A stretch of DNA of 32,362 nucleotides from a virus (IMGVR_UViG_3300035670_000851); one strand, 5' to 3'. Shown: positions 9,136 through 32,362, counted from the stretch's first letter. Program-made: numbers and translations. Notes: generated from the sequence alone by a model not told the origin.

Positions 9136-9137
9136 CT

Positions 9138-9356: not shown

Positions 9357-9543
9357 ATTAGGATTTGTAGATTCCTCTTATCCTGAAGATGGAGTATTTA
9401 ATGATTACACCTATCACGATGAAAAGTTTAGTATTAATTTCTATGGGAATAACATTCTTGAAATACAATTCTTTGATGAATGGATTACAACCAATGCCAA
9501 AACAATGGAAGATATTCAGGAGTTGATAAGATTGTTTAAATGA
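9322..9543 (+). CDS. Hypothetical acidic protein (73 aa)
   Basis: ORF track. Overlaps the upstream ORF by 35 nt. Confidence 0.5.
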   Translation: MKTPITPEALIELGFVDSSYPEDGVFNDYTYHDEKFSINFYGNNILEIQFFDEWITTNAKTMEDIQELIRLFK

Positions 9544-9556
9544 TTGTACAATTTTA

Positions 9557-9564
9557 TACCTTTG
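9557..9564 (+). promoter_or_regulatory. Candidate -7 box (TACCTTTG) ahead of the packaging/structural genes
   Basis: Exact TAnnTTTG match 43 nt upstream of the terS ATG. The -33 element is only weak (ATTG/TTTA near 9531-9538). Confidence 0.3.
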
Positions 9565-9606
9565 TTTTGAAAAATTAGTTAACTGAATAAAACTAAATAT
9601 TTTGAA

Positions 9607-9912
9607 ATGGCAGATGGTAGAAAAAACAATAGTGGCAAGATAGGTAATAATGGAGGCAGACCGCCAAAGTCCGAAGAGATAGCACTAATTGCAAGGTTAT
9701 CACCTATGGATGATTTAGCTTTAAAATTGTTAAATGATAAACTAGAAGAGGGCGATATGGCAGCGCTTAAAATGTTTATGGAATACAGATGGAGCAAACC
9801 TAAACAAGAGGTTTCCGTTGATGGGGATTTAATGTTAAGCATCCCAGCTCCAGTTATTTACAATACTGCACCGCCATTGGCAAGTAATGAAAATGATGTA
9901 GAAAATGTTTAA
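9607..9912 (+). CDS. Terminase small subunit (putative)
   Basis: A small protein directly upstream of, and overlapping, terL. It has an N-terminal basic GGRPPKSEE segment typical of HTH-type small terminases. The call is mainly positional. Confidence 0.45.
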   Translation: MADGRKNNSGKIGNNGGRPPKSEEIALIARLSPMDDLALKLLNDKLEEGDMAALKMFMEYRWSKPKQEVSVDGDLMLSIPAPVIYNTAPPLASNENDVENV

Positions 9913-11071: not shown

Positions 11072-12515
11072 AATGGGCGTATTTTCTAAAATATTCAGAG
11101 CTGATATAGAAAAAGCAGCTACTACTCAGTTAGAGGCTTTAATGCCTGGACTTCAGCAACAAATAACCGCTAACCTGTATAATCAAAACGTATTTGGTTG
11201 GATTGGTAACAATCAGGTAATAGTTGATTTCGAGGACAAGGTAAAATTTGTAGATGAAGGGTTTAAGAAAAACGCGGATGTTTATACTTGTATTGATATT
11301 ATCTCAAAGAAAATAGCAGAGTGCGCTTATGCTCTTTATGAGATTAAAGAGGGCGTGACTAAAAAGGATCTAAAGGTTTATGAAAATATGTCTTTAGCTG
11401 AAGGACCAACTGCTAAGATGCGGACTTTGCAATTAAAAGAGCAGATGTTTAACCAGATTGAGAGCAATCCAATTCTAGACTTATTGGCAAAACCTAATCC
11501 TCAGCAAACGTATGAGGAATGGATGACTGATCTAGCTGGTTTCTTTTTGTGTACCGGCGATGGTTATATTTTTGGAAATGGCAAGGATCCTGCAATGACT
11601 GAAAAACAAATCTGGTCACAACTTTATTCTTTGCCATCACAATTTATAGAGATTATCTCAGGCGGAATGTTTGAGCCTATCAAGGGTTATCAGATGCGAT
11701 CGGTTTACATGACCGAAGTTCCAATACCGGCCAATCAAGTTGTTCACTTTAAATCCTTTAATCCAGACTTTACGCTAACAGGTGCGCAATTGTACGGACA
11801 GTCACCAATAAAAGCTATTTACCGGAATGTACTAAAAGAGAATGAAGGCGATAACGAATTACTCAAGCAAATCCGTAACGGAGGCGCTATGGGTTTTATA
11901 TCACCAGATGGATCAGGCGCAAGTTTGACTAAAGATCAAATGAACGTACTCAAAGAAAAGATCATTGATGCTAAACGTGGCGAAACTTTAATGGATCGTA
12001 TATTCCCATCATCTGGTCCGCTTAAATGGACTCAGATAGGATTGCCATCAACTGATTTGCAGTTAATCGAATCGCTAAACATTGATACCAGAAAGATATA
12101 TGCAGCGTTTCACGTTCCTATTCAGTTTTCAGGTAGTGAAGAAGCATCAACGGACAATAATATGGGTTGGGCATCTAAGCAGTTAATCTACAATGCAACT
12201 GCTCCACTATCTCGCAAGATCAGAGATGCTATCAATAAGTTTGTTTGCGAACCATACGCTAAAGCATACGGAAAGAAATACTACTTTGATTTTGATTTTA
12301 GTAGTTATCCTGAGATGCAGGAGGATATGGCTAAACTGACTACATGGTTAGCTAACTCATATTGGATTACTCCAGATGAGAAACGTATAGCTCAGGGTTA
12401 TGACAAGATCAGCACTCCAGAGATGCAGAATATTTATGTTCCGGCTAACTTAGTTCCAATTGAGGATTTATCTTTAGATCAGGCGTATAACAATGCAACT
12501 ATAAATGGCAAGTAG
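11058..12515 (+). CDS. Portal protein
   Basis: A 485-aa protein immediately after terL and before the MuF-like and protease genes. Size and order match HK97/SPP1-type portals. Confidence 0.8.
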   Translation: MIGTKMGVFSKIFRADIEKAATTQLEALMPGLQQQITANLYNQNVFGWIGNNQVIVDFEDKVKFVDEGFKKNADVYTCIDIISKKIAECAYALYEIKEGVTKKDLKVYENMSLAEGPTAKMRTLQLKEQMFNQIESNPILDLLAKPNPQQTYEEWMTDLAGFFLCTGDGYIFGNGKDPAMTEKQIWSQLYSLPSQFIEIISGGMFEPIKGYQMRSVYMTEVPIPANQVVHFKSFNPDFTLTGAQLYGQSPIKAIYRNVLKENEGDNELLKQIRNGGAMGFISPDGSGASLTKDQMNVLKEKIIDAKRGETLMDRIFPSSGPLKWTQIGLPSTDLQLIESLNIDTRKIYAAFHVPIQFSGSEEASTDNNMGWASKQLIYNATAPLSRKIRDAINKFVCEPYAKAYGKKYYFDFDFSSYPEMQEDMAKLTTWLANSYWITPDEKRIAQGYDKISTPEMQNIYVPANLVPIEDLSLDQAYNNATINGK

Positions 12516-13332
12516 TGTTAAATATCACAAAACGTATTTAAGGCTGCATAAAGAGTATGAGGCTTATGCTTATCCTATAATTAAGAAAGCCTTGGATGAC
12601 CAGACAAGCGCAGTTGCTGATTTTGTCAATCAGGATAACTTTGATAACATTGATTTATACATTGAGTTCTTAGTTCAGCAGAAACCTTTATACAACGGAT
12701 TAGAAAAAATCTACACCAAGGTCGGCGTATCAGCTGCTACTTTCTCTTATGACTGGATTCGTAATTCAGTACCTAAAACCAAAAAGGATTTTATTATAGA
12801 TTTCTTTAATGCCGCATGGTACGAAGAGATGGTAAACTACTTTAGACTAATCGGAGGCACTAAGGTTACAGGCATTGATGATACTACTAGAAATATTGTA
12901 AAAAACTTATTGGCTAATATTTTAGGACAAAATTTGTCCAGAAGAGAACAGGCAAAGCTATTTGAAGAAAGCCTAAATGATCCAGCGTTTAACAGAGCAA
13001 GGTCTTTGGTTATAGCGAGAACAGAAGCTACTACTGCGGCAAACTTCGGAATTAATATGGGCGCTGAAAGTTCAGATTATGAAGTTGTAAAGTTTTGGAT
13101 TAATACTAGAGATTCTAGAGCCAGACCTTCGCATCTGGCAATGACTAAAGATCGTATTGCATTAAATCAGCCTTTTATGGTTGGTGGAACTCCAATGATG
13201 TATCCAGGTGAAGTTGGCGCACCTGCGGCTGAAGTTGTTAATTGCAGATGCGTTATGGCTACTGAAGCATTAAAGGATGATGATGGGTTGCCGATATTAA
13301 AACCGAGAACTCCTGAATATTTAAAAAGATAA
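12505..13332 (+). CDS. Head morphogenesis protein (Mu F / SPP1 gp7-like)
   Basis: Positioned after the portal. The C-terminal block RTEATTAANFG ... SRARPSH ... VNCRCV is characteristic of the Phage_Mu_F domain. Confidence 0.7.
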   Translation: MASSVKYHKTYLRLHKEYEAYAYPIIKKALDDQTSAVADFVNQDNFDNIDLYIEFLVQQKPLYNGLEKIYTKVGVSAATFSYDWIRNSVPKTKKDFIIDFFNAAWYEEMVNYFRLIGGTKVTGIDDTTRNIVKNLLANILGQNLSRREQAKLFEESLNDPAFNRARSLVIARTEATTAANFGINMGAESSDYEVVKFWINTRDSRARPSHLAMTKDRIALNQPFMVGGTPMMYPGEVGAPAAEVVNCRCVMATEALKDDDGLPILKPRTPEYLKR

Positions 13333-13368
13333 TTAAAATAAAAGTATATTTACAGAAATTTTTCTCTT

Positions 13369-14076
13369 ATGAAAGGATTATTAGAATATAAGAACTTTAA
13401 AGCCGAGATCAAGGACATGGATCCTCAAAGGATGACTGTTACCGGATACTTTGCTAGTTTCGGGAATATGGATTATGATGATGATATTATAATGCCAGGC
13501 GCAGCGACTAAAACAATTGCAGAACGTGGTCCTATGGGATCGAATGAAATATTCTTTTTAAATCAGCATAACTGGTCACAACCTCATGGCAAACCAATGG
13601 TACTAGAGGCGCAGGAAAAAGGTATTTATTTTGAGAGTTCTATTGCACCTACTTCATACGGAAAGGATGCAATGATTCTTTATGCTGAAGGTATTGTTGT
13701 CCAGCATTCAATTGGATTTAGTACAGTCAAGTCTGACTATGATCAAAAGACAGGAACAAGAATTATCAAAGAGATTAAATTATATGAAGGATCTAACGTA
13801 ACTTTAGGCGCTAATCCTGAGACACCATTTACAGGCTTTAAGTCTTTGACAATGGCGGAGATCAACGATCAGATAGGTAAAATGATTAAGCTATTAAAAG
13901 ATGGTAGCTTAACGGATGAAGGTTTTGGTAGATTGGAAATAGCATTAAAGCAATTCCAATTGGAAGCCTTCAATTTAGGTAAAAATTCACTATTAGATAA
14001 AGAGCCGGTAATTCCCACTCCAGATGCTAATGAGCCGAATATATTAACAAGTTTAATTAACGTATTACAAAATTAA
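13369..14076 (+). CDS. Prohead serine protease (HK97 family), possibly with a C-terminal scaffold-like helix
   Basis: VTGYFASFGNMDYDDDIIMPGA and HSIGF blocks as in HK97-type prohead proteases. It lies directly upstream of the capsid gene. Confidence 0.75.
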   Translation: MKGLLEYKNFKAEIKDMDPQRMTVTGYFASFGNMDYDDDIIMPGAATKTIAERGPMGSNEIFFLNQHNWSQPHGKPMVLEAQEKGIYFESSIAPTSYGKDAMILYAEGIVVQHSIGFSTVKSDYDQKTGTRIIKEIKLYEGSNVTLGANPETPFTGFKSLTMAEINDQIGKMIKLLKDGSLTDEGFGRLEIALKQFQLEAFNLGKNSLLDKEPVIPTPDANEPNILTSLINVLQN

Positions 14077-14079
14077 AAA

Positions 14080-15282
14080 ATGGACAATTTAGAAGCAAAG
14101 GCTCAGGAGTTGCTAGATGCAAACAAAGCCAAAACATTAGATGAAGCAAAGACTATCATCGCAAACGCTATCAGCGAAGCAACAAAAGCAGCTGATTTAA
14201 AGCTAGAAGAATTACAAAAATCTACAACTGTTAAATTTGATGAAATGGACAAAGCATTGCTAGAAGCCAAATCAGAAAACAACAGAATGAAAATGGATGC
14301 TAAAGATAAAGCACCAGTTTCTTTCAATCAGGCTTTTGCTACTGCAATGGATGAGAACTCTGATAACTTGGAGAAATTCAAGAGAAAAGAAATCAAGCAA
14401 TTTGCAATGGAGTTAAAGACAGTTGGCGATATGTCATTGTCTAACATCACAGATTTAGCTGCTGCAAACGTACAGATGCTACCGGGTATCATCCCAGCTG
14501 CACCGCGTAAGTTGCACATCAGATCATTACTTCCAACTGGAGTTATGACTACTTCTGCAATTCACTACTTGCAAGAAACAGGTTCTGAGGGATCAGTTGC
14601 TGCATGGGCAGATAATTCAGGAACTAAATCTCAAATTGATTACGATTTGACAGAAGAGGTTGCACCATCTGAGTTCATCGCAGGTTACCTTCGTATTACT
14701 CGTAAGGCGCTTGATGATATCTCTGCTATGCGTTCATACCTTCAGTCACGTTTGCTTGAGCAGTACCTTGATGCAGAAGATAATCAGTTACTTAATGGTA
14801 ACGGAACTTCTCCAAACTTAGGTGGTTTAATTACTAACGCTGAGGCTTACTCAGGTTTCCGTACTATTCAGGTTGAGAAATTGGTTGATTCAATTGCACA
14901 AATTGATGGAAACAATCACTCTGCCAATGGTATTCTTTTAAGTCCTGAGCAGTATTATGCTTTGTTACTTAACAGATCAACTACCAATGAGTACACTTTG
15001 CCAGGACTAGGAACTGTAACCTCTGTAAATGGTCAAATGTTCATCTCAGGTGTTCCGGTATTCAAATCTACTGCAATGAGTGATTCTAAATACCTTGTTG
15101 GAGATTGGGCAAAAGGTGCGCAGCTTTATGTTCGTGAGAATCCAATTGTAAGATTCTTCGAAGAAGATGGTACTAACGTTCGTGAGAACAAGATTACAGT
15201 TCGTGTTGAAGGTCGTGTTGCACTTCCTATCTACTATACTGATGCATTTGTGACTGGTTCACTTAATGCTAATCCAAGCTAA
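14080..15282 (+). CDS. Major capsid protein, HK97 fold, with an N-terminal coiled-coil delta domain
   Basis: A 400-aa protein after the protease. The first 100 aa or so are charged and helical (delta-like). The remainder has HK97-family composition. It is followed by a strong terminator. Confidence 0.85.
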   Translation: MDNLEAKAQELLDANKAKTLDEAKTIIANAISEATKAADLKLEELQKSTTVKFDEMDKALLEAKSENNRMKMDAKDKAPVSFNQAFATAMDENSDNLEKFKRKEIKQFAMELKTVGDMSLSNITDLAAANVQMLPGIIPAAPRKLHIRSLLPTGVMTTSAIHYLQETGSEGSVAAWADNSGTKSQIDYDLTEEVAPSEFIAGYLRITRKALDDISAMRSYLQSRLLEQYLDAEDNQLLNGNGTSPNLGGLITNAEAYSGFRTIQVEKLVDSIAQIDGNNHSANGILLSPEQYYALLLNRSTTNEYTLPGLGTVTSVNGQMFISGVPVFKSTAMSDSKYLVGDWAKGAQLYVRENPIVRFFEEDGTNVRENKITVRVEGRVALPIYYTDAFVTGSLNANPS

Positions 15283-15306
15283 CTTTTTTAGTGTTTATGG
15301 GGAAAG

Positions 15307-15335
15307 CCTGTCGAGAAATCGGCAGGTTTTTTTTT
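15307..15335 (+). terminator. Intrinsic terminator after the capsid gene
   Basis: CCTGTCG (15307-15313) pairs with CGGCAGG (15320-15326), with one G-U pair and a 6-nt loop. It is followed by T9 (15327-15335). Confidence 0.8.
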
Positions 15336-15349
15336 GTTATTAAAATAAG

Positions 15350-15357
15350 TACATTTG
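15350..15357 (+). promoter_or_regulatory. Candidate -7 box (TACATTTG) at the entry to the glycosylation cassette
   Basis: Exact TAnnTTTG match 15 nt after the terminator T-run. It overlaps the TTG at 15355 and lies only about 4 nt before ATG 15361, so either the 58-aa ORF is leaderless or not expressed from it, or the box is fortuitous. Confidence 0.25.
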
Positions 15358-15360
15358 CTT

Positions 15361-15537
15361 ATGTTTAAAGCCAACTTTATAGGTGAAGCAGGATTATACA
15401 AAAATCAAGAGTATAAAATCTGTATTGGCGTTATAAATGGTTGGATTCATGTCCGCAGAAAGTGCGGTGCAGGTCGCGTTAATTACCCATCAATATTAGA
15501 GTTCCTAAGAGATTGGGATAACATCCGTAAAGTATGA
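15361..15537 (+). CDS. Hypothetical small protein (58 aa from ATG; track version starts at TTG 15355)
   Basis: ORF track. ATGA overlap with the following glycosyltransferase gene. No motif recognised. Confidence 0.35.
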   Translation: MFKANFIGEAGLYKNQEYKICIGVINGWIHVRRKCGAGRVNYPSILEFLRDWDNIRKV

Positions 15538-16445
15538 GAATTTTCCATTTAGGATTATGCGTTGGTCCTCCTCCCTTTGATTCAATGCGTAAAGCCTTTT
15601 TAGCTAACTGTACTGATTACATAGAATTAAGCACAGGGGAAAAAGATGTAAATAGCAAAGCTATTGCAATGGCTAAAGCATTCAAGCCTGATATTATATT
15701 CATGCAGATTCAAGCAGCAAACATTATCCACATACAAACTGTTAAGGCTATGCGAGAAACAGGCGCGTGGATTTGTAATTGGAATGGTGATATAAGGGAT
15801 GAAACGCCAAGATGGATGATTGAGATGTCACCTTATGTAGATAGAACTTTGTTTTCCAATATGCGCGATGTCGGCAATGTCATAAATGGCGGATATTTAG
15901 AGATTGGTTACGATCCTGAGATTTATACACCTACTGGCGATAAAGGTAGTTGCAGAGAGATTTCTTTTTTCGGGAATAATTACGGAGCTGACAAATTTCC
16001 GTTAAGTAGATTGCGAATAGAAATGAATACAATGCTTTATAAAAACTTCGGAAATAGGTATGGCGTTTATGGGAACAACTGGTTTAATGCATCCGGGAAC
16101 TATAACCATTCACAAGCCGAGGAATCAAAAGCATACAGAGCAACCAAAATAGCTATTAACCTAAGCCATTACGATGTAGATTTATATACTTCAGATCGGA
16201 TTTATAGAATATTGGGATCTGGGGCGTTTTGCTTATGCAAGGCTTATCCAAATATGCCATTTATTGATGGCGTTCATGTGCGAACCTGGAATACTATTTA
16301 TGATTTAATGTTATTACTAAGGTATTACATTGATGATCACCAAGAAGAAAGGGATCTAATTGCAAAGCAAGGCAATGAGTTTGTTAAAAAGAATTATACG
16401 TTTGATAAAATGATAAAGAATTTAATTCATATTTATGAAAATTAA
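15534..16445 (+). CDS. CgeB-like glycosyltransferase (GT-B, Glyco_trans_1_2-type C-terminal half)
   Basis: KPDIIFMQ..., ISFFGNNYG...R, YGVYGNNW, YRATKIAINLSH, TSDRIYRILGSGAFCL and the C-terminal ERDLIAKQGNEFVKKNYTFDKM follow the CgeB/DUF3880 plus Glyco_trans_1_2 pattern. Recognised by eye only. Confidence 0.6.
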   Translation: MRIFHLGLCVGPPPFDSMRKAFLANCTDYIELSTGEKDVNSKAIAMAKAFKPDIIFMQIQAANIIHIQTVKAMRETGAWICNWNGDIRDETPRWMIEMSPYVDRTLFSNMRDVGNVINGGYLEIGYDPEIYTPTGDKGSCREISFFGNNYGADKFPLSRLRIEMNTMLYKNFGNRYGVYGNNWFNASGNYNHSQAEESKAYRATKIAINLSHYDVDLYTSDRIYRILGSGAFCLCKAYPNMPFIDGVHVRTWNTIYDLMLLLRYYIDDHQEERDLIAKQGNEFVKKNYTFDKMIKNLIHIYEN

Positions 16446-17181
16446 AGTATTAGGTTTTATGACAATTCATTATGCCGGTGATTACTTGCGTGAGGCGTTA
16501 TTGTCAGTTGTAGATCATGTAGATAAAATGGTGATTGCTTATAGCATGATGCCTAGCCAAGGTCATGGGAGCAAATTGCAATGTCCAGATTCCGAGGGTT
16601 ATATTTTTGACATTTGTAAGGATGTATTAGGTGATAAATTAATTTGGGACCGGGCCGATAGATATGGTGCAGAAACTGAGCATCGAGCAGTCAAGTATAA
16701 ATACTCTGATGGCTATGATTTGGTTTTGACAGTAGATTCAGATGAGGTTTATAAATCGGATGAGCTGGAAGAATCTTTTAAATATGCTTATTGGGGCGTA
16801 GATAGGTTTTATGGCATTGATGGGTTTATAAACTTTTGGAGATCATTTGACTTTGCTTGTTATGATGGATTTAGACCAATCAGATTAGAGAACTTGCACA
16901 GATCAGCGCAAACTCAGGACTTGACTTTAAAACAAACTATCTACCATTTCAGCACTTGTCAGCCAGAGCCTATAATGAGATACAAGTATAACGTATTTGG
17001 TCATGCGCATGAGGTCCGCAAAGATTGGTTAAATCATTGTTTCTACAAATGGAAACCAGATAATCAATTTGGGGATGTGCATTGTGTAGCATTAAACCTT
17101 TGGAATCCTACGCCATTTGATAAATCAGTTTTGCCTAGCTATTTAAAAAGCCATCATAATTATAACAAAGAATTAGTATGA
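16435..17181 (+). CDS. GT-A fold (family 2-like) glycosyltransferase
   Basis: An N-terminal Rossmann-like start (KVLGFMTIHYAGDYLREALLSV), then EHRAVKY and the acidic motif LTVDSDEVY (DxD-type). Confidence 0.55.
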   Translation: MKIKVLGFMTIHYAGDYLREALLSVVDHVDKMVIAYSMMPSQGHGSKLQCPDSEGYIFDICKDVLGDKLIWDRADRYGAETEHRAVKYKYSDGYDLVLTVDSDEVYKSDELEESFKYAYWGVDRFYGIDGFINFWRSFDFACYDGFRPIRLENLHRSAQTQDLTLKQTIYHFSTCQPEPIMRYKYNVFGHAHEVRKDWLNHCFYKWKPDNQFGDVHCVALNLWNPTPFDKSVLPSYLKSHHNYNKELV

Positions 17182-17354
17182 GCGACATTAGTAAGTGTTC
17201 TGGCGAAGGATGCGATTTAAAGAATGAGTGTTATAGATATACTGCAAAAAGCGGAACTTGGCAAAGCTGGTTCTGTGAAGTACCTATAAAAGATGGCAAG
17301 TGTGATATGTTTTGGGATAACAAATTAAAAGATATTAAAGATCAAAAAAAATGA
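17178..17354 (+). CDS. Cys-rich 58-aa protein inside the cassette
   Basis: Not in the track. Hand translation: MSDISKCSGEGCDLKNECYRYTAKSGTWQSWFCEVPIKDGKCDMFWDNKLKDIKDQKK. ATGA overlaps on both sides. Five Cys residues. Confidence 0.5.
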   Translation: MSDISKCSGEGCDLKNECYRYTAKSGTWQSWFCEVPIKDGKCDMFWDNKLKDIKDQKK

Positions 17355-17920
17355 ATTTTGCAGCTATCATAGTTGATGATCGGGAAAATGTGGCTCAAGA
17401 AGCTATGCAAAGACATAAAAAGTTTATACCGAAATCATGGGATGTATTTAATATTAAACCTCCTTATGAAAATGGTATTTACCACATAAAAAATCCTCAG
17501 ATTTATAATAGCATTTTAACTAATCCTAGTTTCTGGCGTGGTTGTAGGTTTGACAGGGTGCTAGTGTTTCAACATGATTCCGGATTACTTAAAGATGGAA
17601 TTGAGGAGTTTTTGGAATGGGATTTTATTGGGGCGTGGATTAAGAACATACCGGGTTGCATGAATGGAGGTTTAAGTATTCGCAATCCTAAAGTTATGCA
17701 CGAAATTTGTTTAAAGCATCCGTATCAAGGAATGGCAGTACATGGCAATGAGGATATTTACTTTTGTAACATGATGCGGCAGTTAGGTTATAAGTTGCCC
17801 GATAAAGAAACCTGCAATAAGTTTGCAGTTGAAACTGAGTTTGCATATGGATCAGTTGGCTATCATGCCATAGATAAGTATCATAAAAATTACAAAGATA
17901 TACTAAAGCAATATGATTGA
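17351..17920 (+). CDS. Putative glycosyltransferase (DUF5672-like)
   Basis: AAIIVDDREN, VLVFQHDSGLL, DFIGAW and NGGLSIRN resemble the conserved blocks of the DUF5672 family of putative sugar transferases. Needs a profile search. Confidence 0.4.
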   Translation: MNFAAIIVDDRENVAQEAMQRHKKFIPKSWDVFNIKPPYENGIYHIKNPQIYNSILTNPSFWRGCRFDRVLVFQHDSGLLKDGIEEFLEWDFIGAWIKNIPGCMNGGLSIRNPKVMHEICLKHPYQGMAVHGNEDIYFCNMMRQLGYKLPDKETCNKFAVETEFAYGSVGYHAIDKYHKNYKDILKQYD

Positions 17921-18464
17921 TAAAATATTAAAAGTAACCGCAGATGAGTTAAATGAGATTAACCTGTCTAAATATCTAAAAAGTACGGATGATCAGGGAT
18001 TCCCAAAGAGTTGGTTTTATATGGATGCTGGATTAGAGCATTACAGATTACTGGCTTATATCAGCAAACTTTACAATGGCGTGACTTTGTTAGACATCGG
18101 AAGCTATCAGGGCAGTTCTGCAATTGCATTATCCTTTAACAAAAAAAACAAGGTTATCAGTTACGATATTGAGCAGCAACCAGAGATAGCTGAGATTAAT
18201 ATTCCTAACATTAAATTTATCAAAGGCAATGTTTTAAAGGATGAGATTACTGCTCCGTTTATTTTGCTAGATACTTATCATGATGGGACATTTGAGCAGG
18301 ACTTTGTTGATCATTTGCTAAAGATTAATTACAAAGGTTTGGTCATGTTTGATGATATCCATTTAAACGAGGAAATGAGTAATTTCTGGAATGGATTAAA
18401 AAATGAGAAATATGATTTGACTGAAATAGGTCATCATTCAGGAACAGGTATAGCAATATTCTAA
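17913..18464 (+). CDS. Class I SAM-dependent methyltransferase (O-methyltransferase/CmcI-like)
   Basis: Motif I VTLLDIGSYQGSSAIAL, an acidic residue after beta2 (ISYDIE), and a later VMFDDIH block. Confidence 0.6.
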   Translation: MIDKILKVTADELNEINLSKYLKSTDDQGFPKSWFYMDAGLEHYRLLAYISKLYNGVTLLDIGSYQGSSAIALSFNKKNKVISYDIEQQPEIAEINIPNIKFIKGNVLKDEITAPFILLDTYHDGTFEQDFVDHLLKINYKGLVMFDDIHLNEEMSNFWNGLKNEKYDLTEIGHHSGTGIAIF

Positions 18465-18465
18465 A

Positions 18466-18573
18466 ATGAAAATATTTAAATTTTTATTTCACATGATATT
18501 AGGAGGCTTTGTGTTATTAGGATTCAGCTTCTTTTTACTCGCAGTAATTGGTTTAATTAAATATATATGGTAA
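18466..18573 (+). CDS. Possible 35-aa transmembrane mini-protein
   Basis: Hand translation: MKIFKFLFHMILGGFVLLGFSFFLLAVIGLIKYIW. It starts 2 nt after the methyltransferase stop and overlaps the next start (ATGGTAA). Confidence 0.3.
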   Translation: MKIFKFLFHMILGGFVLLGFSFFLLAVIGLIKYIW

Positions 18574-19172
18574 ATCTTTTTACTTCAATTTACACCGACA
18601 AAAGCCTTGTAAGGCAAAAGGAATTAATTTATTGCATAAATAAGAATTTAGCCAATGCACATATAGATAAGATTTATCTATTTGTAGAGGGTGAGGTGGA
18701 GTTGCCAAATTCTGACAAATTAGTAATCATACCTTTTAAAAGACCTACCTATCGGGACTTTTTTAGTCTGATTGATAGAACAGTTACCAGCAGGGATGAC
18801 ATATCAATTGTAGCAAATACAGATATTTATTTCAACCATACTTTAAATGGTTTAAACTTGCATGAACGCCAATGTATTGCTTTAAGCAGATGGGATGATA
18901 AGGTCACCGGACTTAAATTGCATAATGAAAGATTTAGTCAGGATGTCTGGATATTTAAAGGAAAAATGCGCAATGTAAATTTCTGCGATTTCTTTTTAGG
19001 AATACCGGGTTGCGATAATCGCATAGCTTATGAGTTAAATAGTGCAGGTTATGTGTTATCTAATCCAGCTACAAAAATTCAAGCTATCCATTACCATCGA
19101 AGCGACTTGCATAATTACGATGGCCAAACAATGAAAATACAAAAGCCTTATCTGTTTATCCCAGTAACATGA
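18567..19172 (+). CDS. Hypothetical protein, possibly a further sugar transferase
   Basis: ORF track, embedded in the cassette. ISIVANTDIYF (DxD-like), SQDVWIF and GIPGCDNRIAYEL blocks. Function not established. Confidence 0.3.
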   Translation: MVNLFTSIYTDKSLVRQKELIYCINKNLANAHIDKIYLFVEGEVELPNSDKLVIIPFKRPTYRDFFSLIDRTVTSRDDISIVANTDIYFNHTLNGLNLHERQCIALSRWDDKVTGLKLHNERFSQDVWIFKGKMRNVNFCDFFLGIPGCDNRIAYELNSAGYVLSNPATKIQAIHYHRSDLHNYDGQTMKIQKPYLFIPVT

Positions 19173-20113
19173 AAATTTTATTAACTCCAGGCATTTACTT
19201 GCCGCACCAAAGAGCAGGATCTGAAATCTATTTACATAGAGTTGTAAAGTATTTAATGAGCAAAGGTCATCAAGTTAAGGCAGTCACCAGATGCCCGGAA
19301 GATTATACTTATGAGGGTATTGAGGTTTACAAGGCTAAAGATAATTACAAAGAATGCCATAATTTTTTATGGGATTGGGCGGATTTGGTTTTCTGCCAAC
19401 TGTCTGGGACTTATTATGCAATGAATAAGCAGAGGCTAAAAGCTAAAAAGGTTATTAATTTTGCTCATAATAACGTAGGTTATCCGCAAGTCAATATAAG
19501 ATCAAATGTTTATACAGTCTACAATTGCGAAAACACAAAGCGAGAATTAAACTACAATCAAAAAACCTATACCCTTTACGCGCCGATTGATTACCGGGAC
19601 TTCTCGACTGATCGACCAAATGCTGAGTATGTTACTCTGATAAATCATAACGAAAACAAGGGCGGTCAGATTTTAATAGACATTGCAAAGCGGATGCCGA
19701 ATGTTAAATTTATGGCGGTCCAAGGTGGGTACTATCACCAAATCAAAGATGAAAAAGTTAAAAACATAAAATACGTTCCATTGGTAGATGATGTGCGCAA
19801 ATATTTGGCGATGACTAAAGTTCTAATTGCACCAAGCGAATATGAAAGCTACGGAATGGCTCAAATAGAAGCTCTGTGTTGCAATATTCCTGTTATATGC
19901 TCTGATATACCCGGCTTTAGAGATAGTGTCTCTGATGCAGGGATATTTGTTGACAGGAACAATATAGAGGCATGGGTAGATGCTATTACTAATATTGATA
20001 CCATACAGACTAAGAAAACTCCTTTAGAAAGGGCGAAGGAATTAGATCCTACTAAGGAATTGCCTAAGTTTGAAAATTGGTTAAATAAAATATGTAATTT
20101 AGCGCTATTATAA
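19169..20113 (+). CDS. Glycosyltransferase family 1 (GT-B, GT4-like)
   Basis: C-terminal domain signature APSEYESYGMAQIEALCCNIPVICSDIPGFRDSV (E-x7-E motif). N-terminal MKILL..G....AGSE as in GT4 enzymes. Confidence 0.8.
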   Translation: MKILLTPGIYLPHQRAGSEIYLHRVVKYLMSKGHQVKAVTRCPEDYTYEGIEVYKAKDNYKECHNFLWDWADLVFCQLSGTYYAMNKQRLKAKKVINFAHNNVGYPQVNIRSNVYTVYNCENTKRELNYNQKTYTLYAPIDYRDFSTDRPNAEYVTLINHNENKGGQILIDIAKRMPNVKFMAVQGGYYHQIKDEKVKNIKYVPLVDDVRKYLAMTKVLIAPSEYESYGMAQIEALCCNIPVICSDIPGFRDSVSDAGIFVDRNNIEAWVDAITNIDTIQTKKTPLERAKELDPTKELPKFENWLNKICNLALL

Positions 20114-20158
20114 TGGAAAAAAAAGAGTATCTAAAACAACCTTTTAAATCTAAACAGA

Positions 20159-20659
20159 ATGGACCAGTTAAATGTAGTGAGCCTAGCGGACGCAAAAATG
20201 TTTCTCAGACTAGACCTAGACTATACAATCGAAGATGGCTTAATTACATCATTGATAAAATCTGCGGTTAATCAAGCCGAGCAGTTTACCCTTCAGGTAT
20301 TATGGCAAAGGCAATTAAGCGTTATTACGCCGGTATCTGGTTCTGTAAAACTATATGAATATCCTTTGATTGCGGTTGAGACTGTTTTTGATCCTGACTT
20401 CAATCCTTTAACATTCGAAACAATCGAAACGCCGGGCTATACTGAGGTAATATCTGGAGCGCCTGGGTTTAATACTGTTACTTTTGTAGCTGGTTATGGT
20501 TGGAATTATGAGGGCGGATCTGATTGCCCTGACGATATTGAAACTGCCATCAAAGAAATGATATCCTACTATTATGAGAACAGAGACAATCCTGTGCAAG
20601 GTATGCCTACGATTGCAACTTTATTACTATCTCCTTACAGGCGTATAACTTTATTTTGA
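20159..20659 (+). CDS. Head-tail connector/adaptor (gp6-like)
   Basis: The N-terminal LADAKMFLRLDLDYTIEDGLITSLIKSAVNQAEQFT is the typical gp6-like head-tail connector helix pair. It is first in the neck gene set. Confidence 0.65.
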   Translation: MDQLNVVSLADAKMFLRLDLDYTIEDGLITSLIKSAVNQAEQFTLQVLWQRQLSVITPVSGSVKLYEYPLIAVETVFDPDFNPLTFETIETPGYTEVISGAPGFNTVTFVAGYGWNYEGGSDCPDDIETAIKEMISYYYENRDNPVQGMPTIATLLLSPYRRITLF

Positions 20660-20660
20660 C

Positions 20661-20999
20661 ATGAATCCAGGCAAATTAGATAAGCGCATTACATTTGGCA
20701 CATTCGATTCAGTAGAAAATGCCTATCAGGATTATGATATTACCTTTGTGCCTGTATTGGCTACATGGGCCAATATCAAACCATACGATGGTAATAGGCA
20801 GTTACAAGCGCAAGAGCAAGTAATAAATCAGGTCTTTAGATTTATAATTCGTATCAGAAAAGACTTTGCACCTACAAAAGATATGCGAATCCTGTATGAA
20901 TTGAATTTTTTTACCATTCATTCAATCAGAAATGTAGATGATACATTCAGATTTTATGAAATATTGGCATCTGTTACAGATGATAATAATGGCTTCTAA
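20661..20999 (+). CDS. Head closure / head-tail joining protein
   Basis: 112 aa. The N-terminal GKLDKRITF and the position after the adaptor fit SPP1 gp16/HK97 gp9-type proteins. Confidence 0.5.
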   Translation: MNPGKLDKRITFGTFDSVENAYQDYDITFVPVLATWANIKPYDGNRQLQAQEQVINQVFRFIIRIRKDFAPTKDMRILYELNFFTIHSIRNVDDTFRFYEILASVTDDNNGF

Positions 21000-21429
21000 A
21001 ATAAACATTTCAAGACTTTTATCTCAGATATCATCCTTTGGCAAAGATGCTAATAGGTTAGCGGTTGGGGTTACCAATGATACTACCGAGGGAATGGTTA
21101 CTAATGCTAAGTTAAGAGTAGTTGTTGATCTAGGTCAATTAAGGCAGTCAATCGGCAAAACAACTGCGACGTTGAACAATAATAGATCACTCTTTTTTGC
21201 TAATGCACCTTATGCAGCTTACGTTGAATTTGGTACTGGCAGCGGTGTAGATATTCCGAGAGGTTTTTCAGATTTGGCTGCACCTTTTAAGGGCCGAGGA
21301 ATTAGGAGGCGAGATTATGGCGCTAAACCTTTTTTTATTCCTAGCTACTTAGAAGGGATCCAGCAATATCCAAAACAATTAAGAAAAGTTTTGGAATCTG
21401 AAAGTAGAAAATATAATGCAAAAAAATAA
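20989..21429 (+). CDS. HK97 gp10-like neck/tail-attachment protein
   Basis: The YAAYVEFGTG motif is typical of the gp10 family. I prefer the ATG at 20989 (MASKINIS...) over the track start at 20938, which would overlap the upstream gene by 62 nt. Confidence 0.6.
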   Translation: MASKINISRLLSQISSFGKDANRLAVGVTNDTTEGMVTNAKLRVVVDLGQLRQSIGKTTATLNNNRSLFFANAPYAAYVEFGTGSGVDIPRGFSDLAAPFKGRGIRRRDYGAKPFFIPSYLEGIQQYPKQLRKVLESESRKYNAKK

Positions 21430-21442
21430 TTACATTTGACAA

Positions 21443-21865
21443 ATGAAGGATGCAAATTTATCTATACTGAATGCATACAAAAGTACACTTGCCAATTTAA
21501 TAGTCGGTGGTGTTACTGTTCCAGTATATAGTAAGTCAGCGCCTTTAAAGAATGTTCCGGCTAAATATGTAATATTATCTAGTCAAACAAGATTGCAAGA
21601 GCAAACAAAGTGCGGATATTGGTATCTTTGTACTATTAACGTGCAGATAGTAACTAAATATCCTAATGGGAATGGTGATTTAAGTTTTGCTATGGTTATT
21701 TCTGAGGAAATACAAAGCAGAATACAAGATACTAATTTAACTTTGTCTAACTTTATAAATGTTGAAACCTTGCAACTATTAACAAATGAGGTAATTTTAG
21801 AAACAGATACAGAAAACATATTTCAATACATTTTAACTTTTCAACACAAATTAAATAAAACTTAA
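21443..21865 (+). CDS. Tail completion/terminator protein (positional call)
   Basis: A 140-aa ORF between the gp10-like and major tail genes. Confidence 0.35.
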   Translation: MKDANLSILNAYKSTLANLIVGGVTVPVYSKSAPLKNVPAKYVILSSQTRLQEQTKCGYWYLCTINVQIVTKYPNGNGDLSFAMVISEEIQSRIQDTNLTLSNFINVETLQLLTNEVILETDTENIFQYILTFQHKLNKT

Positions 21866-21867
21866 TT

Positions 21868-22338
21868 ATGGCAGCAGAAACATTTTATTCAGGAAGTTTA
21901 TTTATGCTTTACATTCGCACAGGTGGCGCTTGGAAACCAGTAGCATGTTTGACTTCAAACGGAATCAGCGAATCATGGGATTTCGCTGAGACAGTAACTA
22001 AATGCGATCCGGGAGTGACCAGGCGCAAACCGACAACTTATTCGTATGAGATTCCTTTCGAAGGAGTTTTTACAGATACAGTTGGCGCAGGTGGTGATAC
22101 CGCTAAAGCATCATGGGATACGATTAAAAATATTGCTAGATCAAAGACTTTGACTGAGTATCAAATAGCTTTGTTATTAGCTAATGGTGCTGAAGATCCT
22201 AATTTTGCTGCTCAGTATGGTACTGCTTACTTTAGCGCTTTAGATATTACAGGTGCTGAAGGCGAGTTCATTACTTTCTCTGGTACTTTGTTAGGCGATG
22301 GTGACATTACTGAAACTGATCCTTATCCTGGATATTAA
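21868..22338 (+). CDS. Major tail (tube) protein
   Basis: A 156-aa protein immediately upstream of the chaperone frameshift pair and the tape measure gene, the conserved siphovirus order. Confidence 0.65.
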   Translation: MAAETFYSGSLFMLYIRTGGAWKPVACLTSNGISESWDFAETVTKCDPGVTRRKPTTYSYEIPFEGVFTDTVGAGGDTAKASWDTIKNIARSKTLTEYQIALLLANGAEDPNFAAQYGTAYFSALDITGAEGEFITFSGTLLGDGDITETDPYPGY

Positions 22339-22341
22339 TTT

Positions 22342-22695
22342 ATGGAAGGTCATTTAACGTATAAAATCGGTGAGGTTGATAGGCAGTTTTTCTTTGGCAA
22401 TTATGCCTTAGAGCAAACATTAAATCATTTTGATGCATCGGTTTCTGATTTATCTGAAATTTTAGGTAAGCAATTATTGCCATTTTTGAGAATGTTTATG
22501 TTTCATGCGGCAAGTTATCCAATACTAAAGAAAGGTGAGATTGTTGATTTTACCGAGTTTGATATTCATGAATGGATTGATAATGCCGGAGGTTCTAGCG
22601 GTGAATTGATTGTTGTAGTTTCAAATCATGTTTTCAGAGTATTAGGATTAAATACTGAGGTTAAGGAGCAAAAAAAAAGCAAAGCGGAAAGTTAA
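22342..22695 (+). CDS. Tail assembly chaperone (gpG-like, zero-frame product)
   Basis: Positioned between the tube and tape measure genes. It contains an A9 slippery run 18 nt before its stop. Confidence 0.7.
   Translation: MEGHLTYKIGEVDRQFFFGNYALEQTLNHFDASVSDLSEILGKQLLPFLRMFMFHAASYPILKKGEIVDFTEFDIHEWIDNAGGSSGELIVVVSNHVFRVLGLNTEVKEQKKSKAES
22670..22678 (+). promoter_or_regulatory. Programmed -1 ribosomal frameshift site (A AAA AAA)
   Basis: The zero frame reads CAA AAA AAA AGC. The heptamer at 22671-22677 is X XXY YYZ. The -1 frame is open from here (AAG CAA AGC GGA AAG TTA AAT TGG AAT AAA GAT GTG CTG ...) through to 23003. Confidence 0.7.
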
Positions 22696-23003
22696 ATTGG
22701 AATAAAGATGTGCTGACATTTGCTTTTGGTGAACTGGGATTAATGCCTGATGATTTTTACGCCTTGACATGGAATCAATATATATTGAAATGTCAAGGCT
22801 TTTTTAATAGAGAAAAAAAGGAGTGGGAACGGATAGGCTGGGCAACTTGGAACGGAATGAGAGTGCATGTAAACAAGGGGATGCCAACTTATAAAAAATT
22901 CATGTCATTTATTTATCAAGATGAAGAAATAAAGGACATGGATAGAATTAAAGAACAGATGAATAAGGCGATGAGTAAATATCTGGAAAATGCAAGGAAT
23001 TGA
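22677..23003 (+). CDS. -1 frame extension of the tail assembly chaperone (gpT-like part of a G-T fusion)
   Basis: The track ORF starts at GTG 22710, with no ATG until codon 12. The reading frame is -1 relative to 22342-22695 and stays open back to the slippery run. Confidence 0.65.
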   Translation, partial: KQSGKLNWNKDVLTFAFGELGLMPDDFYALTWNQYILKCQGFFNREKKEWERIGWATWNGMRVHVNKGMPTYKKFMSFIYQDEEIKDMDRIKEQMNKAMSKYLENARN

Positions 23004-24894
23004 GATACCTATTGGAGCGCCATTAGGGCAATTAGATAGAGACCTAAAAGGAGCAGAAAAGAAATTAAAAGGATTTACTAGTTCTGCTGAAACTAATTTA
23101 AAAGGTTTTTCCTCTACTGCAAGTAGTGCATTTAAAAGCGCAGGACTTGCTTTAGCAGGTGCTTTTAGTGTTGGTGCTTTTGCAAGTTTTGGAAAAGAAG
23201 TTTTAGCAGTAACCGCTGAATTTGAAAAGTTCGGTGCAGTTTTGGGTAATACTTTAGGTTCTACTGCTTTAGCAAACTTAAAGCTAAAAGAAATAGAAGA
23301 GTTTGCATCTAGAACTCCATTTAGCGTTCAAGAATTAACTAACTCATTTGTAAAGTTAGCAAATCAAGGTTTCAAGCCGACTGGCGATGAAATGAGAAGA
23401 TTAGGTGATTTGGCGGCAAGTACCGGCAAGTCTTTTGATCAATTAGCTGAAGCAATATTAGATGCGCAAACAGGCGAGTTTGAAAGGTTAAAGGAATTTG
23501 GCGTTAGGGCGCAAGATGCCGGGGATAAGGTAATATTTACCTTTAAAGGAGTTCAAACCACAGTAGATAAATCATCTGAGGCTATAAGAAACTATGTTAC
23601 ATCTTTAGGTAATGCTGAAGGTGTATCTGGATCTATGGCAGTTATATCTGAAACCTTAACTGGAAAGATTTCAAACTTAGGCGATAGTTGGGATCAGATG
23701 CTAGTTTCTATTGGTAGCAATACGTCTGGAGTATTTAGTTCAGTTATCAGCATTATAAGTGAGGCAGTTAATTCAATAACAGAATTTAACAAAGAATTAA
23801 ATATTGCATCTAAATTTAAAATTGAAGGTACACTAGTTGAAGGTTTAGCAAAATCCGTTGGCAAACTTTCAGGCATACCGGCTCTCGGTGCTTTATTATC
23901 AACAAAAGATATAAAAGTAAATGCTATTCAATCAGTCGAAAAAGGCGTTAATAATATAGTTTCTAAAACATTATCTGGAGCAAAAAGCGCTAATGATTTT
24001 GGTATTGCAATAGCACGTTTAAAAGCTGAAGGTGATAAATTATTACAATCAAAGGGCGGAGGCGATAAGCAAGTTGCAGCAGCATTTCAATCTATTTATC
24101 AAGATGGGATTAGAGCATTGCAAGATGGCAGAAAACAATTTCAAAAAGAATTAAATAAACCAGCTGGTGCAAATTTTGGTAAAGCAAAAAAAGCAAAAAC
24201 AGAAAAAGTTACTAGGGATCCTCAATTTACTGCGCAGCCAAGTATAAATGAATTAGATTTATTTTTAGAAAAGTATAGAAAAACTGAGGCACAATTAAAT
24301 AAAACTCCATTAGTTCCTTTTCCTGGAATAAAAGAAAAATTAAAAGTTGTTAATCAATCATTAATAGAGTTTAATGCAGCTGCAAATGATATTATTCAAA
24401 ATAGCATAATAAATACATTCAATAATCTAGGTACTGCTATTGGAGAATCTTTAGCAACTGGTGGAAATGTATTAAAAGCAGTTGGAAATACTATTTTGCA
24501 AGGATTGGCTGGGTTTTTATCTGAAATGGGTTCTCTATTAATTAAATATGGAACTTTAGCGGTTTTAAAAGGAAAGTTAGATATAGCAATTCTAACAGGA
24601 GGACCAGTTGCTATTGGTGCAGGATTGGCAGCTATTGCCGCAGGTATTGCATTAAAAGCAGCAGGTGGTGCAATAGGATCACTTGCAAGTAAAGGTAGCG
24701 GAGGTGGTGGAAGTAAAGGCTCAAGCGCTGGAGCTTCAGTACCTATGCCACAAGGAAGCGCAGCTATCAGTACAAGCGCAGCAGGTTCTGCTCAGGATTT
24801 TGGCGGTGGCGCAGTTGTATTTGAGATTTCGGGAGCAAATCTAATAGGTGTATTAAATAGAGCAGGTGCTAAACTTACAAGATACGGACCATAA
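22990..24894 (+). CDS. Tail tape measure protein
   Basis: 634 aa, Ala/Gly/Lys-rich and helical. It has a hydrophobic Gly-rich segment near the C-terminus (GGPVAIGAGLAAIAAGIALKAAGGAIG). It follows the chaperone pair. Confidence 0.85.
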   Translation: MQGIEIPIGAPLGQLDRDLKGAEKKLKGFTSSAETNLKGFSSTASSAFKSAGLALAGAFSVGAFASFGKEVLAVTAEFEKFGAVLGNTLGSTALANLKLKEIEEFASRTPFSVQELTNSFVKLANQGFKPTGDEMRRLGDLAASTGKSFDQLAEAILDAQTGEFERLKEFGVRAQDAGDKVIFTFKGVQTTVDKSSEAIRNYVTSLGNAEGVSGSMAVISETLTGKISNLGDSWDQMLVSIGSNTSGVFSSVISIISEAVNSITEFNKELNIASKFKIEGTLVEGLAKSVGKLSGIPALGALLSTKDIKVNAIQSVEKGVNNIVSKTLSGAKSANDFGIAIARLKAEGDKLLQSKGGGDKQVAAAFQSIYQDGIRALQDGRKQFQKELNKPAGANFGKAKKAKTEKVTRDPQFTAQPSINELDLFLEKYRKTEAQLNKTPLVPFPGIKEKLKVVNQSLIEFNAAANDIIQNSIINTFNNLGTAIGESLATGGNVLKAVGNTILQGLAGFLSEMGSLLIKYGTLAVLKGKLDIAILTGGPVAIGAGLAAIAAGIALKAAGGAIGSLASKGSGGGGSKGSSAGASVPMPQGSAAISTSAAGSAQDFGGGAVVFEISGANLIGVLNRAGAKLTRYGP

Positions 24895-27334: not shown

Positions 27335-27339
27335 AAGAT

Positions 27340-32261: not shown

Positions 32262-32362
32262 CAGATGCTGAGCGCATCCAGCTATTAATGCAAGAGAAAC
32301 TCCGCCTGGAAGCTGAACTCGCAAAAATAGTCAAAGAGTTAAGGATGTTGGTTAGTAAAATA
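32236..32362. repeat. Terminal direct repeat, right copy
   Basis: Identical to bases 1-127. Confidence 0.95.

Follow-up and report, generated by a model that had tools for sequence, protein, structure and literature searches.

The viral sequence IMGVR_UViG_3300035670_000851 was analysed as a single window, by which we mean the whole stretch of 32,362 nucleotides, with a focus on a cassette of ~4.8 kb (positions 15,336 to 20,113) lying between the major capsid gene and the gene of the head-tail adaptor. An exact 127-bp direct repeat at both ends of the window (1-127 and 32236-32362) indicated that the assembly is circular and complete, with a length of 32,235 bp, ~15 % of which is occupied by the cassette. 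Nine same-strand open reading frames (ORFs), chained by ATGA overlaps at 15534, 17178, 17351 and 19169 and by short overlaps at 16435, 17913 and 18567, were recovered as listed in a preliminary description of this DNA, with one correction: the first ORF, given there as 15355-15537 from a TTG codon, starts in relatives at the ATG at 15361 and encodes 58 residues (Table 1). The capsid and gp6-like adaptor genes named in that description as flanks were retrieved by profile searches, the adaptor (20159-20659) matching both PF05135 and phrog_40, and the strong terminator and the box that it had placed 3' of the capsid gene were confirmed. It had also raised the possibility of an insertion, and only 70 bp separate the capsid and connector genes of Cellulophaga phage phi17:1, the closest relative among isolated phages, whereas the same interval is filled here by the cassette. 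The products comprise what are probably five glycosyltransferases, accompanied by a probable sugar methyltransferase and three small proteins.

Table 1. Coordinates of the features discussed, in the window unless a locus of a relative is named
Feature	Position	Strand	Evidence or remark
HK97-type major capsid gene (left flank, candidate acceptor)	14080..15282	+	TIGR01554, 1.9e-21
Intrinsic terminator 3' of the capsid gene	15299..15334	+	16-pair stem and T-run
TACATTTG box (TAnnTTTG, Bacteroidota -7 promoter consensus)	15350..15357	+	3 nt before ATG 15361
Conserved 58-aa basic protein, lineage-specific	15361..15537	+	RRKCGAGR motif; kept in relatives
CgeB-like GT-B glycosyltransferase (core member 1)	15534..16445	+	PF13524
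GT-A glycosyltransferase by model, small almost virus-only family (core member 2, o248)	16435..17181	+	AlphaFold2 (AF2) and Foldseek
Cys-rich 58-aa protein, accessory	17178..17354	+	phrog_20586, 5e-6
DUF5672 protein (core member 3)	17351..17920	+	PF18922
Probable class I S-adenosylmethionine-dependent sugar methyltransferase, accessory	17913..18464	+	LLDIGSYQGSSA motif
35-aa single-pass hydrophobic peptide, accessory	18466..18573	+	Hydropathy
GT-A glycosyltransferase by model (core member 4)	18567..19172	+	AF2 and Foldseek
GT4-type GT-B glycosyltransferase, specific to the cassette version of this lineage	19169..20113	+	PF00534, E-x7-E
Head-tail adaptor, head-closure and Neck1 genes	20159..21429	+	PF05135, phrog_40, phrog_25, phrog_5
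TAnnTTTG box	9557	+	Before packaging/head genes
TAnnTTTG box	21431	+	Four nt before ATG 21443
TAnnTTTG box	30050	+	Before lysis genes
C5 cytosine DNA methylase	4941-6185		PF00145, 1e-71
Interval gene of a relative, example	L031:1283-2104		
Interval gene of a relative, example	L060:6283-6924		
Interval gene of a relative, example	L029:12716-13339		
Interval gene of a relative, example	L019:11289-11765		

Two of the transferases were recognised by Pfam. The CgeB-like protein matched PF13524 over residues 173-298 (1e-11, 45.4 bits against a cut-off of 25), while a sequence search of the PDB with it found nothing. The GT4-type protein matched PF00534 (2.4e-17, 63.4 bits against 26.4) and PF13692 (7e-17, 62.5 against 27), as well as phrog_26352 over residues 1-302 (2e-40), and it carries the E-x7-E motif (EYESYGMAQIE, in ...PSEYESYGMAQIEAL...); the N-terminal family PF13439 scored 15.3 bits against a cut-off of 28.5.

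The products of 16435-17181 and 18567-19172 were modelled with AF2 from alignments of metagenomic homologues, and their folds were compared by Foldseek. For the first, a member of a family referred to here as o248, the model had a predicted local distance difference test score (pLDDT) of 94.2 and a predicted template-modelling (TM) score of 0.91. Its top PDB matches were the glycocin S-glycosyltransferases SunS and ThuS (8e-7), followed by SpsA, TarS and TarP; 118 PDB entries were matched at E<=1e-3 and, among the matches listed, most were GT-A enzymes, with RmlA-type nucleotidyltransferases of related fold in addition. The SunS match had a TM score of 0.45-0.49, and in BFVD phage proteins labelled 'GT family 17' or 'Fringe-like' reached query TM scores (TMq) of 0.63-0.72. 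A DxD motif (D101-x-D103-E104) was invariant in 41 sequences. This protein has no Pfam match and does not fall in the Pfam GT2 family (PF00535), which only occasional members of its own family reach (P0057 and, weakly, P0506), and the whole family counts 541 representatives among 1.84 billion proteins. The product of 18567-19172, which had been put forward as a possible fifth transferase, gave a model with a pLDDT of 93.7 that matched chondroitin synthase, B4GalT1, GlcAT and ppGalNAc-T (E 2e-6 to 1e-3, TMq 0.5-0.6), and its residues N84-T-D86, D126, D150, H175 and H177 were invariant. On the strength of these models, both proteins are assigned to the GT-A fold of glycosyltransferases. A homologue of the latter in Synechococcus phage S-SKS1 adjoins a nucleotide-sugar epimerase.

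The remaining candidate transferase matched PF18922 (DUF5672) at 3e-24, with 85.8 bits against a cut-off of 24.4, and residues D76, N105, G106 and G107 were invariant. Profile comparison with PDB sequences yielded nothing significant; the sub-significant alignment to glycogenin-2 (E 0.5-0.9) laid FQHDS on the DxD segment FLDAD and CMNGGLSI on CFNSGVFV. Comparison by hhalign with the two GT-A families of the cassette was negative. These motifs suggest that the DUF5672 protein is probably a GT8-like GT-A transferase, the fifth of the cassette. In the literature searched, DUF5672 was mentioned only in unrelated work on type VII secretion effectors of Streptococcus suis. Thus, of the four transferases and one possible transferase counted at the outset, two are now backed by Pfam families and two by predicted folds, and the DUF5672 protein stays at the level of motifs.

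The methyltransferase seen earlier in 17913-18464 shows the glycine-rich motif I, LLDIGSYQGSSA, but all its Pfam matches remained below cut-off (FtsJ, 7e-4, 20 bits against 24.1; Methyltransf_3, 5.5e-3, 16.5 against 22), and profile comparison with the PDB returned O-methyltransferases at E 0.1-0.5, with nothing significant. Homologues with 35-38 % identity were found in cyanomyoviruses, and the one in S-SSM7 is flanked by nucleotide-sugar epimerases, a UDP-glucose dehydrogenase and transferases. In other phage loci bearing all or part of the cassette core (see below), the methyltransferase counterparts carry PF13578 (L083) or, in L090 and L092, PF13578 or PF04989. Because of this cyanophage sugar-gene cluster and of these counterparts, sugars are suggested as the substrate, and the protein is probably a class I sugar methyltransferase. 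Homology to gp41, the 'DNA methylase' of the Cellulophaga phage, was considered and rejected, since none was found.

Three small proteins complete the cassette. The 58-residue basic protein is present in all relatives extending that far, with 54-100 % identity, and has no Pfam or PHROG match. The Cys-rich protein, with five cysteines, was found in only eight relatives, other small ORFs filling its slot elsewhere; its gene is translationally coupled by ATGA to the o248 transferase gene, whose product has SunS and ThuS as its top PDB matches. The 35-residue peptide holds the sole transmembrane-grade stretch of the cassette (Kyte-Doolittle 19-residue maximum 2.59) and occurs in a subset of relatives, many being without it. 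With such neighbours, the acceptor of the sugars might be a small phage peptide or a small molecule, either a glycocin-like product of the Cys-rich protein or the 58-residue basic protein, which always heads the cassette in this lineage. The fold matches to SunS and ThuS and the adjacent, overlapping Cys-rich gene speak for this possibility. However, the transferase is universal among the relatives that have the cassette whereas the Cys-rich gene is not, the basic protein is missing from other backbones bearing the core, the full-length fold matches are better with phage GT17/Fringe-like proteins than with SunS, and a leader peptide, a transporter and an immunity gene are all absent. A peptide acceptor of this kind is accordingly regarded as the least probable of the explanations considered, and a very improbable one.

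Relatives were collected from IMG/VR, where 80 loci had capsid proteins 83-100 % identical to that of the window. The cassette was located between capsid and adaptor genes in every one of these loci extending far enough, and in all relatives with sufficient sequence down to a capsid identity of 66 %. Six genes were constant across the lineage, namely those of the 58-residue basic protein, the CgeB-like, o248 and DUF5672 proteins, the second GT-A protein and the GT4 protein, while the methyltransferase gene (about half of the loci), the 35-residue peptide gene and the Cys-rich gene varied. The ratio of nonsynonymous to synonymous substitution rates (dN/dS) was 0.03-0.13 for the cassette genes measured (0.05-0.20 for the basic protein gene), against ~0.09 for the capsid gene, and these low values, similar to that of the capsid gene, indicate that the ORFs are real genes under purifying selection. 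The interval between capsid and adaptor genes spans 4.05-5.9 kb across relatives owing to extra genes (examples in Table 1), among them a hexapeptide acetyltransferase gene (one locus) and several small ORFs.

Four of the proteins (CgeB-like, o248, DUF5672 and the second GT-A protein) were also found travelling together in unrelated phage backbones, and within the fetched flanks of 8-10 kb no other protein was held in common between those loci and the present genome. The CgeB-like gene adjoins a member of the o248 family in every backbone examined. In three loci (L082, L085 and L086) the core follows a weakly protease-like gene and precedes a tail-fibre-like gene; in L083 it lies among small genes, far from structural genes, in L087 between a primase-like gene and the terminase, and L091 and L092 show other arrangements. 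The context in L082 is only tentatively called structural: hhalign and a PDB search were uninformative as to whether a 407-residue protein downstream of the core is an HK97-type capsid protein. L090, a jumbo-sized contig, has DUF5672 but not the other core genes, and here the neighbours of DUF5672 are CmcI-type methyltransferases and sugar-nucleotide enzymes. Partners added to the core in these loci include hexapeptide acetyltransferases, Methyltransf_24 proteins and GT2 enzymes. Natural fusions join the o248 family to a CgeB-like domain (in both orders, as in P0362 and P0372), to DUF5672 (P0044) and to GT2, P0454 being a further fusion protein, and such fusions indicate that CgeB-like, o248, DUF5672 and GT2 enzymes act in one pathway. 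The gene of the 58-residue leader protein was considered as a further part of the mobile core and discarded, as a hidden Markov model search of the other backbones was negative. It can also be mentioned that in L092 a Cpn10 (GroES-like) gene (10026-10337) stands directly after the transferase core.

As regards expression, the terminator 3' of the capsid gene (free energy -19.6 kcal/mol, z -4.4, none of 200 shuffled sequences folding equally well) is the sole strong plus-strand terminator within 9000-28900, and relatives retain it in each of their 42 distinct intergenic variants. The TACATTTG box is conserved in all 25 variants in which the gene of the 58-residue protein directly follows the terminator, with TA and TTTG invariant and CA, TA, CC, AC or CT between them. 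Boxes of the same kind are present on the plus strand in other late intergenic gaps (Table 1), and between 15361 and 21429 neither a terminator nor a TAnnTTTG box was detected. Given the conserved terminator, the conserved box and the lack of any further signal until 21431, a single transcription unit probably extends from the cassette through the adaptor, head-closure and Neck1 genes, an arrangement that would fit modest, late production of both enzymes and low-copy connector proteins. Support for the box at 15350 consists of its position and its conservation. The two-box pattern of Bacteroides (TTTG, 17-21 nt, TAnnTTTG) had no match there and was not enriched in the window, TAnnTTTG by itself was not enriched in non-coding DNA (five of 32 boxes in ~13 % of the sequence), and scans for sigma-70-type promoters performed at or below chance. 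If the boxes at 15350 and 21431, which precede an ATG by 3-4 nt, are -7 elements of the Bacteroidota type, the transcripts would be leaderless or nearly so.

Absences in the genome were established by Pfam and PHROG scans of its larger ORFs. No gene for nucleotide-sugar synthesis, a priming transferase, a flippase or a polymerase was detected, so that what had been stated for the cassette holds for the complete genome, and member families of lipid-linked polysaccharide and serotype-conversion systems (Wzx/Wzy, GtrABC) were missing as well. Hydropathy revealed no transmembrane segment in any cassette enzyme. Five soluble glycosyltransferases with an optional sugar methyltransferase, and with an acetyltransferase in some relatives, would form an oligosaccharide-building unit, and since the genome makes no nucleotide sugars, the host pool would serve as the source of donors. 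It is considered highly probable that the cassette draws on host sugar nucleotides to build an oligosaccharide on a cytoplasmic acceptor, with methylation in those phages that have the methyltransferase. The sugars would be attached singly, in a presumed order, directly to the acceptor inside the infected cell and with no lipid carrier. Transcription would start from a Bacteroidota-type promoter of the cassette itself, just past the capsid-gene terminator, with the connector genes on the same transcript, and expression would presumably be late and at low, catalytic levels. Close relatives, which differ in methylation and acetylation genes, would then produce different glycans.

Virion proteins are the best single guess for the acceptor, although we place this identification slightly below even chances. 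The assembled virion proteins would be modified, the capsid first, followed by the tail tube or the Ser/Thr/Gly-rich 902-residue fibre, and the particle would acquire a glycan coat. This preference is based on the apparent co-transcription with head-completion genes, on the ability of SunS and ThuS, the top PDB fold matches of the o248 transferase, to glycosylate peptides, and on the comparison with three phage systems, those of mycobacteriophage Corndog (gp35-gp38), Streptomyces phage TurkishDelight (gp20) and the Cellulophaga phages.

Chlorovirus PBCV-1 is a further model: its major capsid protein receives a methylated oligosaccharide in the cytoplasm, independently of the host machinery, from soluble transferases of the virus (A064R and others) and a methyltransferase domain. 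It is, however, a giant virus with a eukaryotic host, and the 50 best PDB matches by fold obtained with either GT-A protein do not include A064R. A mechanistic analogy is also offered by the spore crust of Bacillus subtilis, where CgeB and SpsA glycosylate a protein shell assembled in the cytoplasm of the mother cell. The CgeB-like protein belongs to the Pfam family based on CgeB and SpsA is among the fold matches of the o248 transferase, but the likeness is distant, at the level of family and fold, and there is no operon similarity.

The closest analogue in position and composition is Corndog (cluster O), whose gp35-gp38 comprise an O-methyltransferase, two glycosyltransferases and an N-acetylglucosaminyltransferase and, in two reports citing Freeman et al. 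2023 (PMC11600133, PMC12363180), are described as glycosylating capsid and tail tube. Like the present cassette, which is known from its sequence alone, that of Corndog combines a methyltransferase and several soluble transferases, inserted among the head genes of a siphophage and encoded on the strand of those genes (PMC4351075); its enzymes are not virion components, and no sugar-nucleotide or lipid-carrier genes lie alongside. Phage-encoded transferases located within or close to the structural genes, in some cases together with an O-methyltransferase, are a trait shared with actinobacteriophage systems (PMC4351075). The two differ in position (portal-protease in Corndog, capsid-adaptor here), in the number of transferases (three against five) and in the host (an actinobacterium against a presumed Bacteroidota member). 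Che8, cited in the preliminary description as a phage with transferases next to capsid genes, proved an imprecise precedent, as PMC11256854 places the transferase genes of Che8-type phages near the right genome end.

Phage TurkishDelight provided the closest homologue of the GT4 protein in an isolated phage, gp20 (26 % identity over 96 %, 9e-30), and its gene is located between the major capsid gene and the major tail/adaptor genes. It is a single 678-residue protein in an unrelated 94-kb genome, in contrast to the five-enzyme cassette described here. Cellulophaga phages phi17:1, phi12:1 and phi18:1 (Helsingorvirus) are the nearest isolated relatives (33 % identity between the window capsid protein and the major capsid protein of phi17:1, 27 % for the portal), infect a Bacteroidota host and carry in the head module a pair made of a methyltransferase (PF13578) and a TOD1/MUCI70-like transferase. 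This pair, situated between MuF-like and protease genes, contains just one transferase-like gene and is not homologous to the cassette. The presence of a transferase gene in the structural module of a Cellulophaga phage has been noted before, with its function left open (PMC11946311). In phi17:1 the pair corresponds to gp41-gp42 (L081:5301-6970), of which the annotated 'DNA methylase' matches Methyltransf_24 (PF13578), a family that also adjoined sugar genes in other loci analysed here, and the 'putative glycosyltransferase' matches TOD1/MUCI70 (PF04765); it may represent a second, non-homologous sugar cassette in the head module of Bacteroidota phages.

A series of observations weighs against virion proteins as the acceptor, or against parts of the scheme on which this proposal is built. 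No acceptor signature was found, and the acceptor is proposed by analogy. The capsid protein shows no C-terminal extension with respect to that of the cassette-less phi17:1, whereas in PMC12619734 such extensions are reported as glycosylation sites of mycobacteriophage capsids. When 50,697 phage records were searched by tblastn with each of the five transferases and with the methyltransferase, no mycobacteriophage was matched, and no similarity was detectable to the enzymes of Corndog or Che8, including the cluster of the essential transferase (Che8 gp110/Corndog gp38). The fifth transferase is assigned at the motif level, and the reading of the box at 15350 as the cassette promoter is likewise drawn only from the nucleotide sequence. 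In relatives, the interval also hosts genes for a PAPS (3'-phosphoadenosine 5'-phosphosulfate)-reductase-like protein (11 loci), an N6/N4 DNA methylase (two loci) and GP88 (two loci), and it is thus a general hotspot of accessory genes. Moreover, the core stands outside recognisable structural modules in L083 and L087 and moves between unrelated phages, a mobility that is better explained by an acceptor common to many phages or hosts than by one particular capsid protein. Hence the argument from placement made at the outset is weakened by the hotspot, by the location of the core in other phages and by the lack of a capsid extension; the multi-transferase soluble cassette itself stood up to analysis, and the acceptor is not established. 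Finally, GT2- and GT4-type enzymes devoid of transmembrane segments commonly use lipid-linked acceptors (O-antigen, Pgl), whose intermediates they can reach at the face of the membrane; the solubility of the cassette enzymes is hence compatible with a host acceptor of this type.

This last point leads to the remodelling of the host envelope, in which the transferases would act at the inner membrane face on undecaprenyl-linked intermediates (lipopolysaccharide (LPS), capsule or a Bacteroidota O-glycan) or on another host glycoconjugate. A priming enzyme, a flippase and a ligase of the host would complete the pathway, and the altered surface would block superinfection or prevent progeny from sticking to debris. 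The best NCBIfam matches of the GT4 protein, which include exopolysaccharide, teichuronic-acid and LPS transferases, are in line with this explanation, as are the cyanophage sugar-gene clusters containing homologues of the second GT-A protein and of the methyltransferase, the membrane peptide encoded within the cassette and the mobility of the core, which would suit an acceptor supplied by the host. Against it, classic serotype conversion is a prophage trait, and among the larger ORFs none was recognised as an integrase or as another lysogeny gene; nor is there a GtrA/GtrB-type or other membrane component, apart from the accessory 35-residue peptide, itself missing from many relatives. Being apparently co-transcribed with head-completion genes, the cassette would be expressed late, which would leave little time to export a new five-sugar structure. 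In addition, the o248 family hardly occurs in the 185,579 species genomes of bacteria and archaea, unlike typical surface-polysaccharide transferases. Envelope remodelling is accordingly judged unlikely, with roughly one chance in a few of being the correct explanation.

DNA was also considered as the acceptor. The glycan would then be placed on a modified base of the phage genome and would serve to evade restriction, as in metavirome clusters of methyltransferase, TET and transferase genes. In such 5mYOX/TET clusters, phage GT-A and GT-B enzymes use host sugar nucleotides to put mono- to trisaccharides on 5-hydroxymethylcytosine, and their genes are sometimes near structural genes (bioRxiv 10.1101/2023.12.21.572611). 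The present genome shares with them a C5 cytosine methylase (Table 1), the hotspot of relatives contains an N6/N4 DNA methylase and a PAPS-reductase-like gene and in this resembles a DNA-modification island, and the GT4 protein passes the Pfam cut-off for 'GT4 in conflict systems' (27.9 bits against 26). However, unlike these clusters, the genome has, according to Pfam scans of its larger ORFs, no TET/JBP dioxygenase or ThyS-type hydroxymethylase that could make the hydroxyl acceptor. The ORF that overlaps the methylase gene bears a nuclease-type motif and no dioxygenase signature. The genes of known pathways lie together, whereas the cassette is 9 kb away from the methylase gene, and the three sugars reached by described DNA glycans would be surpassed with five transferases and a sugar methyltransferase. 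The alternative of DNA glycosylation, already mentioned in the preliminary description, is weakened by the complete genome, which has the methylase but no enzyme known to create the hydroxyl group, and is considered improbable.

The ORF in question (6182-6625), conserved and of 147 residues, overlaps the methylase gene by ATGA. A role as TET-like dioxygenase was examined and rejected, because there was no Pfam match and a PD...E-x-K motif (WPDIQIY...GLMIEMK) was found instead. The two genes may form a methylase-nuclease pair, or the ORF may encode a VRR-NUC-like protein.

Returning to virion proteins as the favoured acceptor, our data may be combined into a broader and more tentative proposal, to which we would give about one chance in three: a portable kit for a glycan coat, made of a virus-restricted, mobile core of four transferases and of exchangeable methyl-, acetyl- and glycosyltransferases, would spread among unrelated aquatic phages and, in this Bacteroidota-type siphophage lineage, glycosylate capsid or tail. 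Virion glycosylation by a phage-encoded cassette of methyltransferase and transferases within the head genes is already known from cluster O mycobacteriophages, and in the literature searched such glycosylation was limited to a few actinobacteriophages, in which it alters antibody recognition. What appears to be new with respect to that literature is the set of five transferases (two from unannotated, almost virus-only families, plus DUF5672), the mobile core of four genes and the occurrence in a Bacteroidota-type siphophage lineage. If capsid or tail are glycosylated in this lineage, no such system would have been known before outside actinobacteriophages. Should several unrelated phages with the same four-enzyme core likewise coat their particles with a methylated oligosaccharide, virion glycosylation would prove to be widespread among phages instead of a mycobacteriophage curiosity, with consequences for adsorption and particle stability as well as for grazing and decay in natural waters. 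Functions would then also be assigned to DUF5672 and to the two unannotated transferase families, and relatives with or without the methyltransferase or acetyltransferase would provide natural glycan variants for comparison. A DNA acceptor would imply glycosylation without a known hydroxymethylating enzyme, and a host glycan would imply surface remodelling by a phage without detectable lysogeny genes; both would still be unusual.

The host is probably a member of the Bacteroidota, as indicated by the Cellulophaga phages as nearest isolates, by the BT4734-like domain of the primase and by a relative binned with Saprospiraceae. The latter is a 28-kb contig assigned to a Saprospiraceae metagenome-assembled genome; it contains the sole match to the o248 family in the 185,579 species genomes, its capsid protein is 66 % identical to that of the window, and it has the cassette at the same place. 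A nucleotide search of GenBank phages with 15 kb of the window gave no match. By Pfam and PHROG scans, the other genes include, for replication and DNA metabolism, a YqaJ-type exonuclease, a DnaA-C-like helix-turn-helix protein, the C5 DNA methylase and a primase/VapE protein; for packaging and head, TerL, the portal, a MuF-like protein, the prohead protease and the capsid; for the connector, the adaptor, head-closure and Neck1 proteins; and for tail and lysis, the tail tube, the tape measure, distal tail proteins, the 902-residue fibre and an M15 peptidase. A metallophosphoesterase gene is present as well.

Two further observations concern the tail genes. ORF 26879-27334, downstream of the distal tail protein, matches phrog_1407 (1e-9), the same major-tail-protein family as the tail-tube gene (21868-22338), and probably encodes a tube-like domain protein of the tail tip. 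The fibre (27340-30048), in which only a faint BppL_N match was found at residues 300-318, ends in a very acidic Glu/Pro-rich C-terminal tail (…EQEPMEDLTEVVEPIEEVVVEQAEPTEPDSEPDTQTQPNN).

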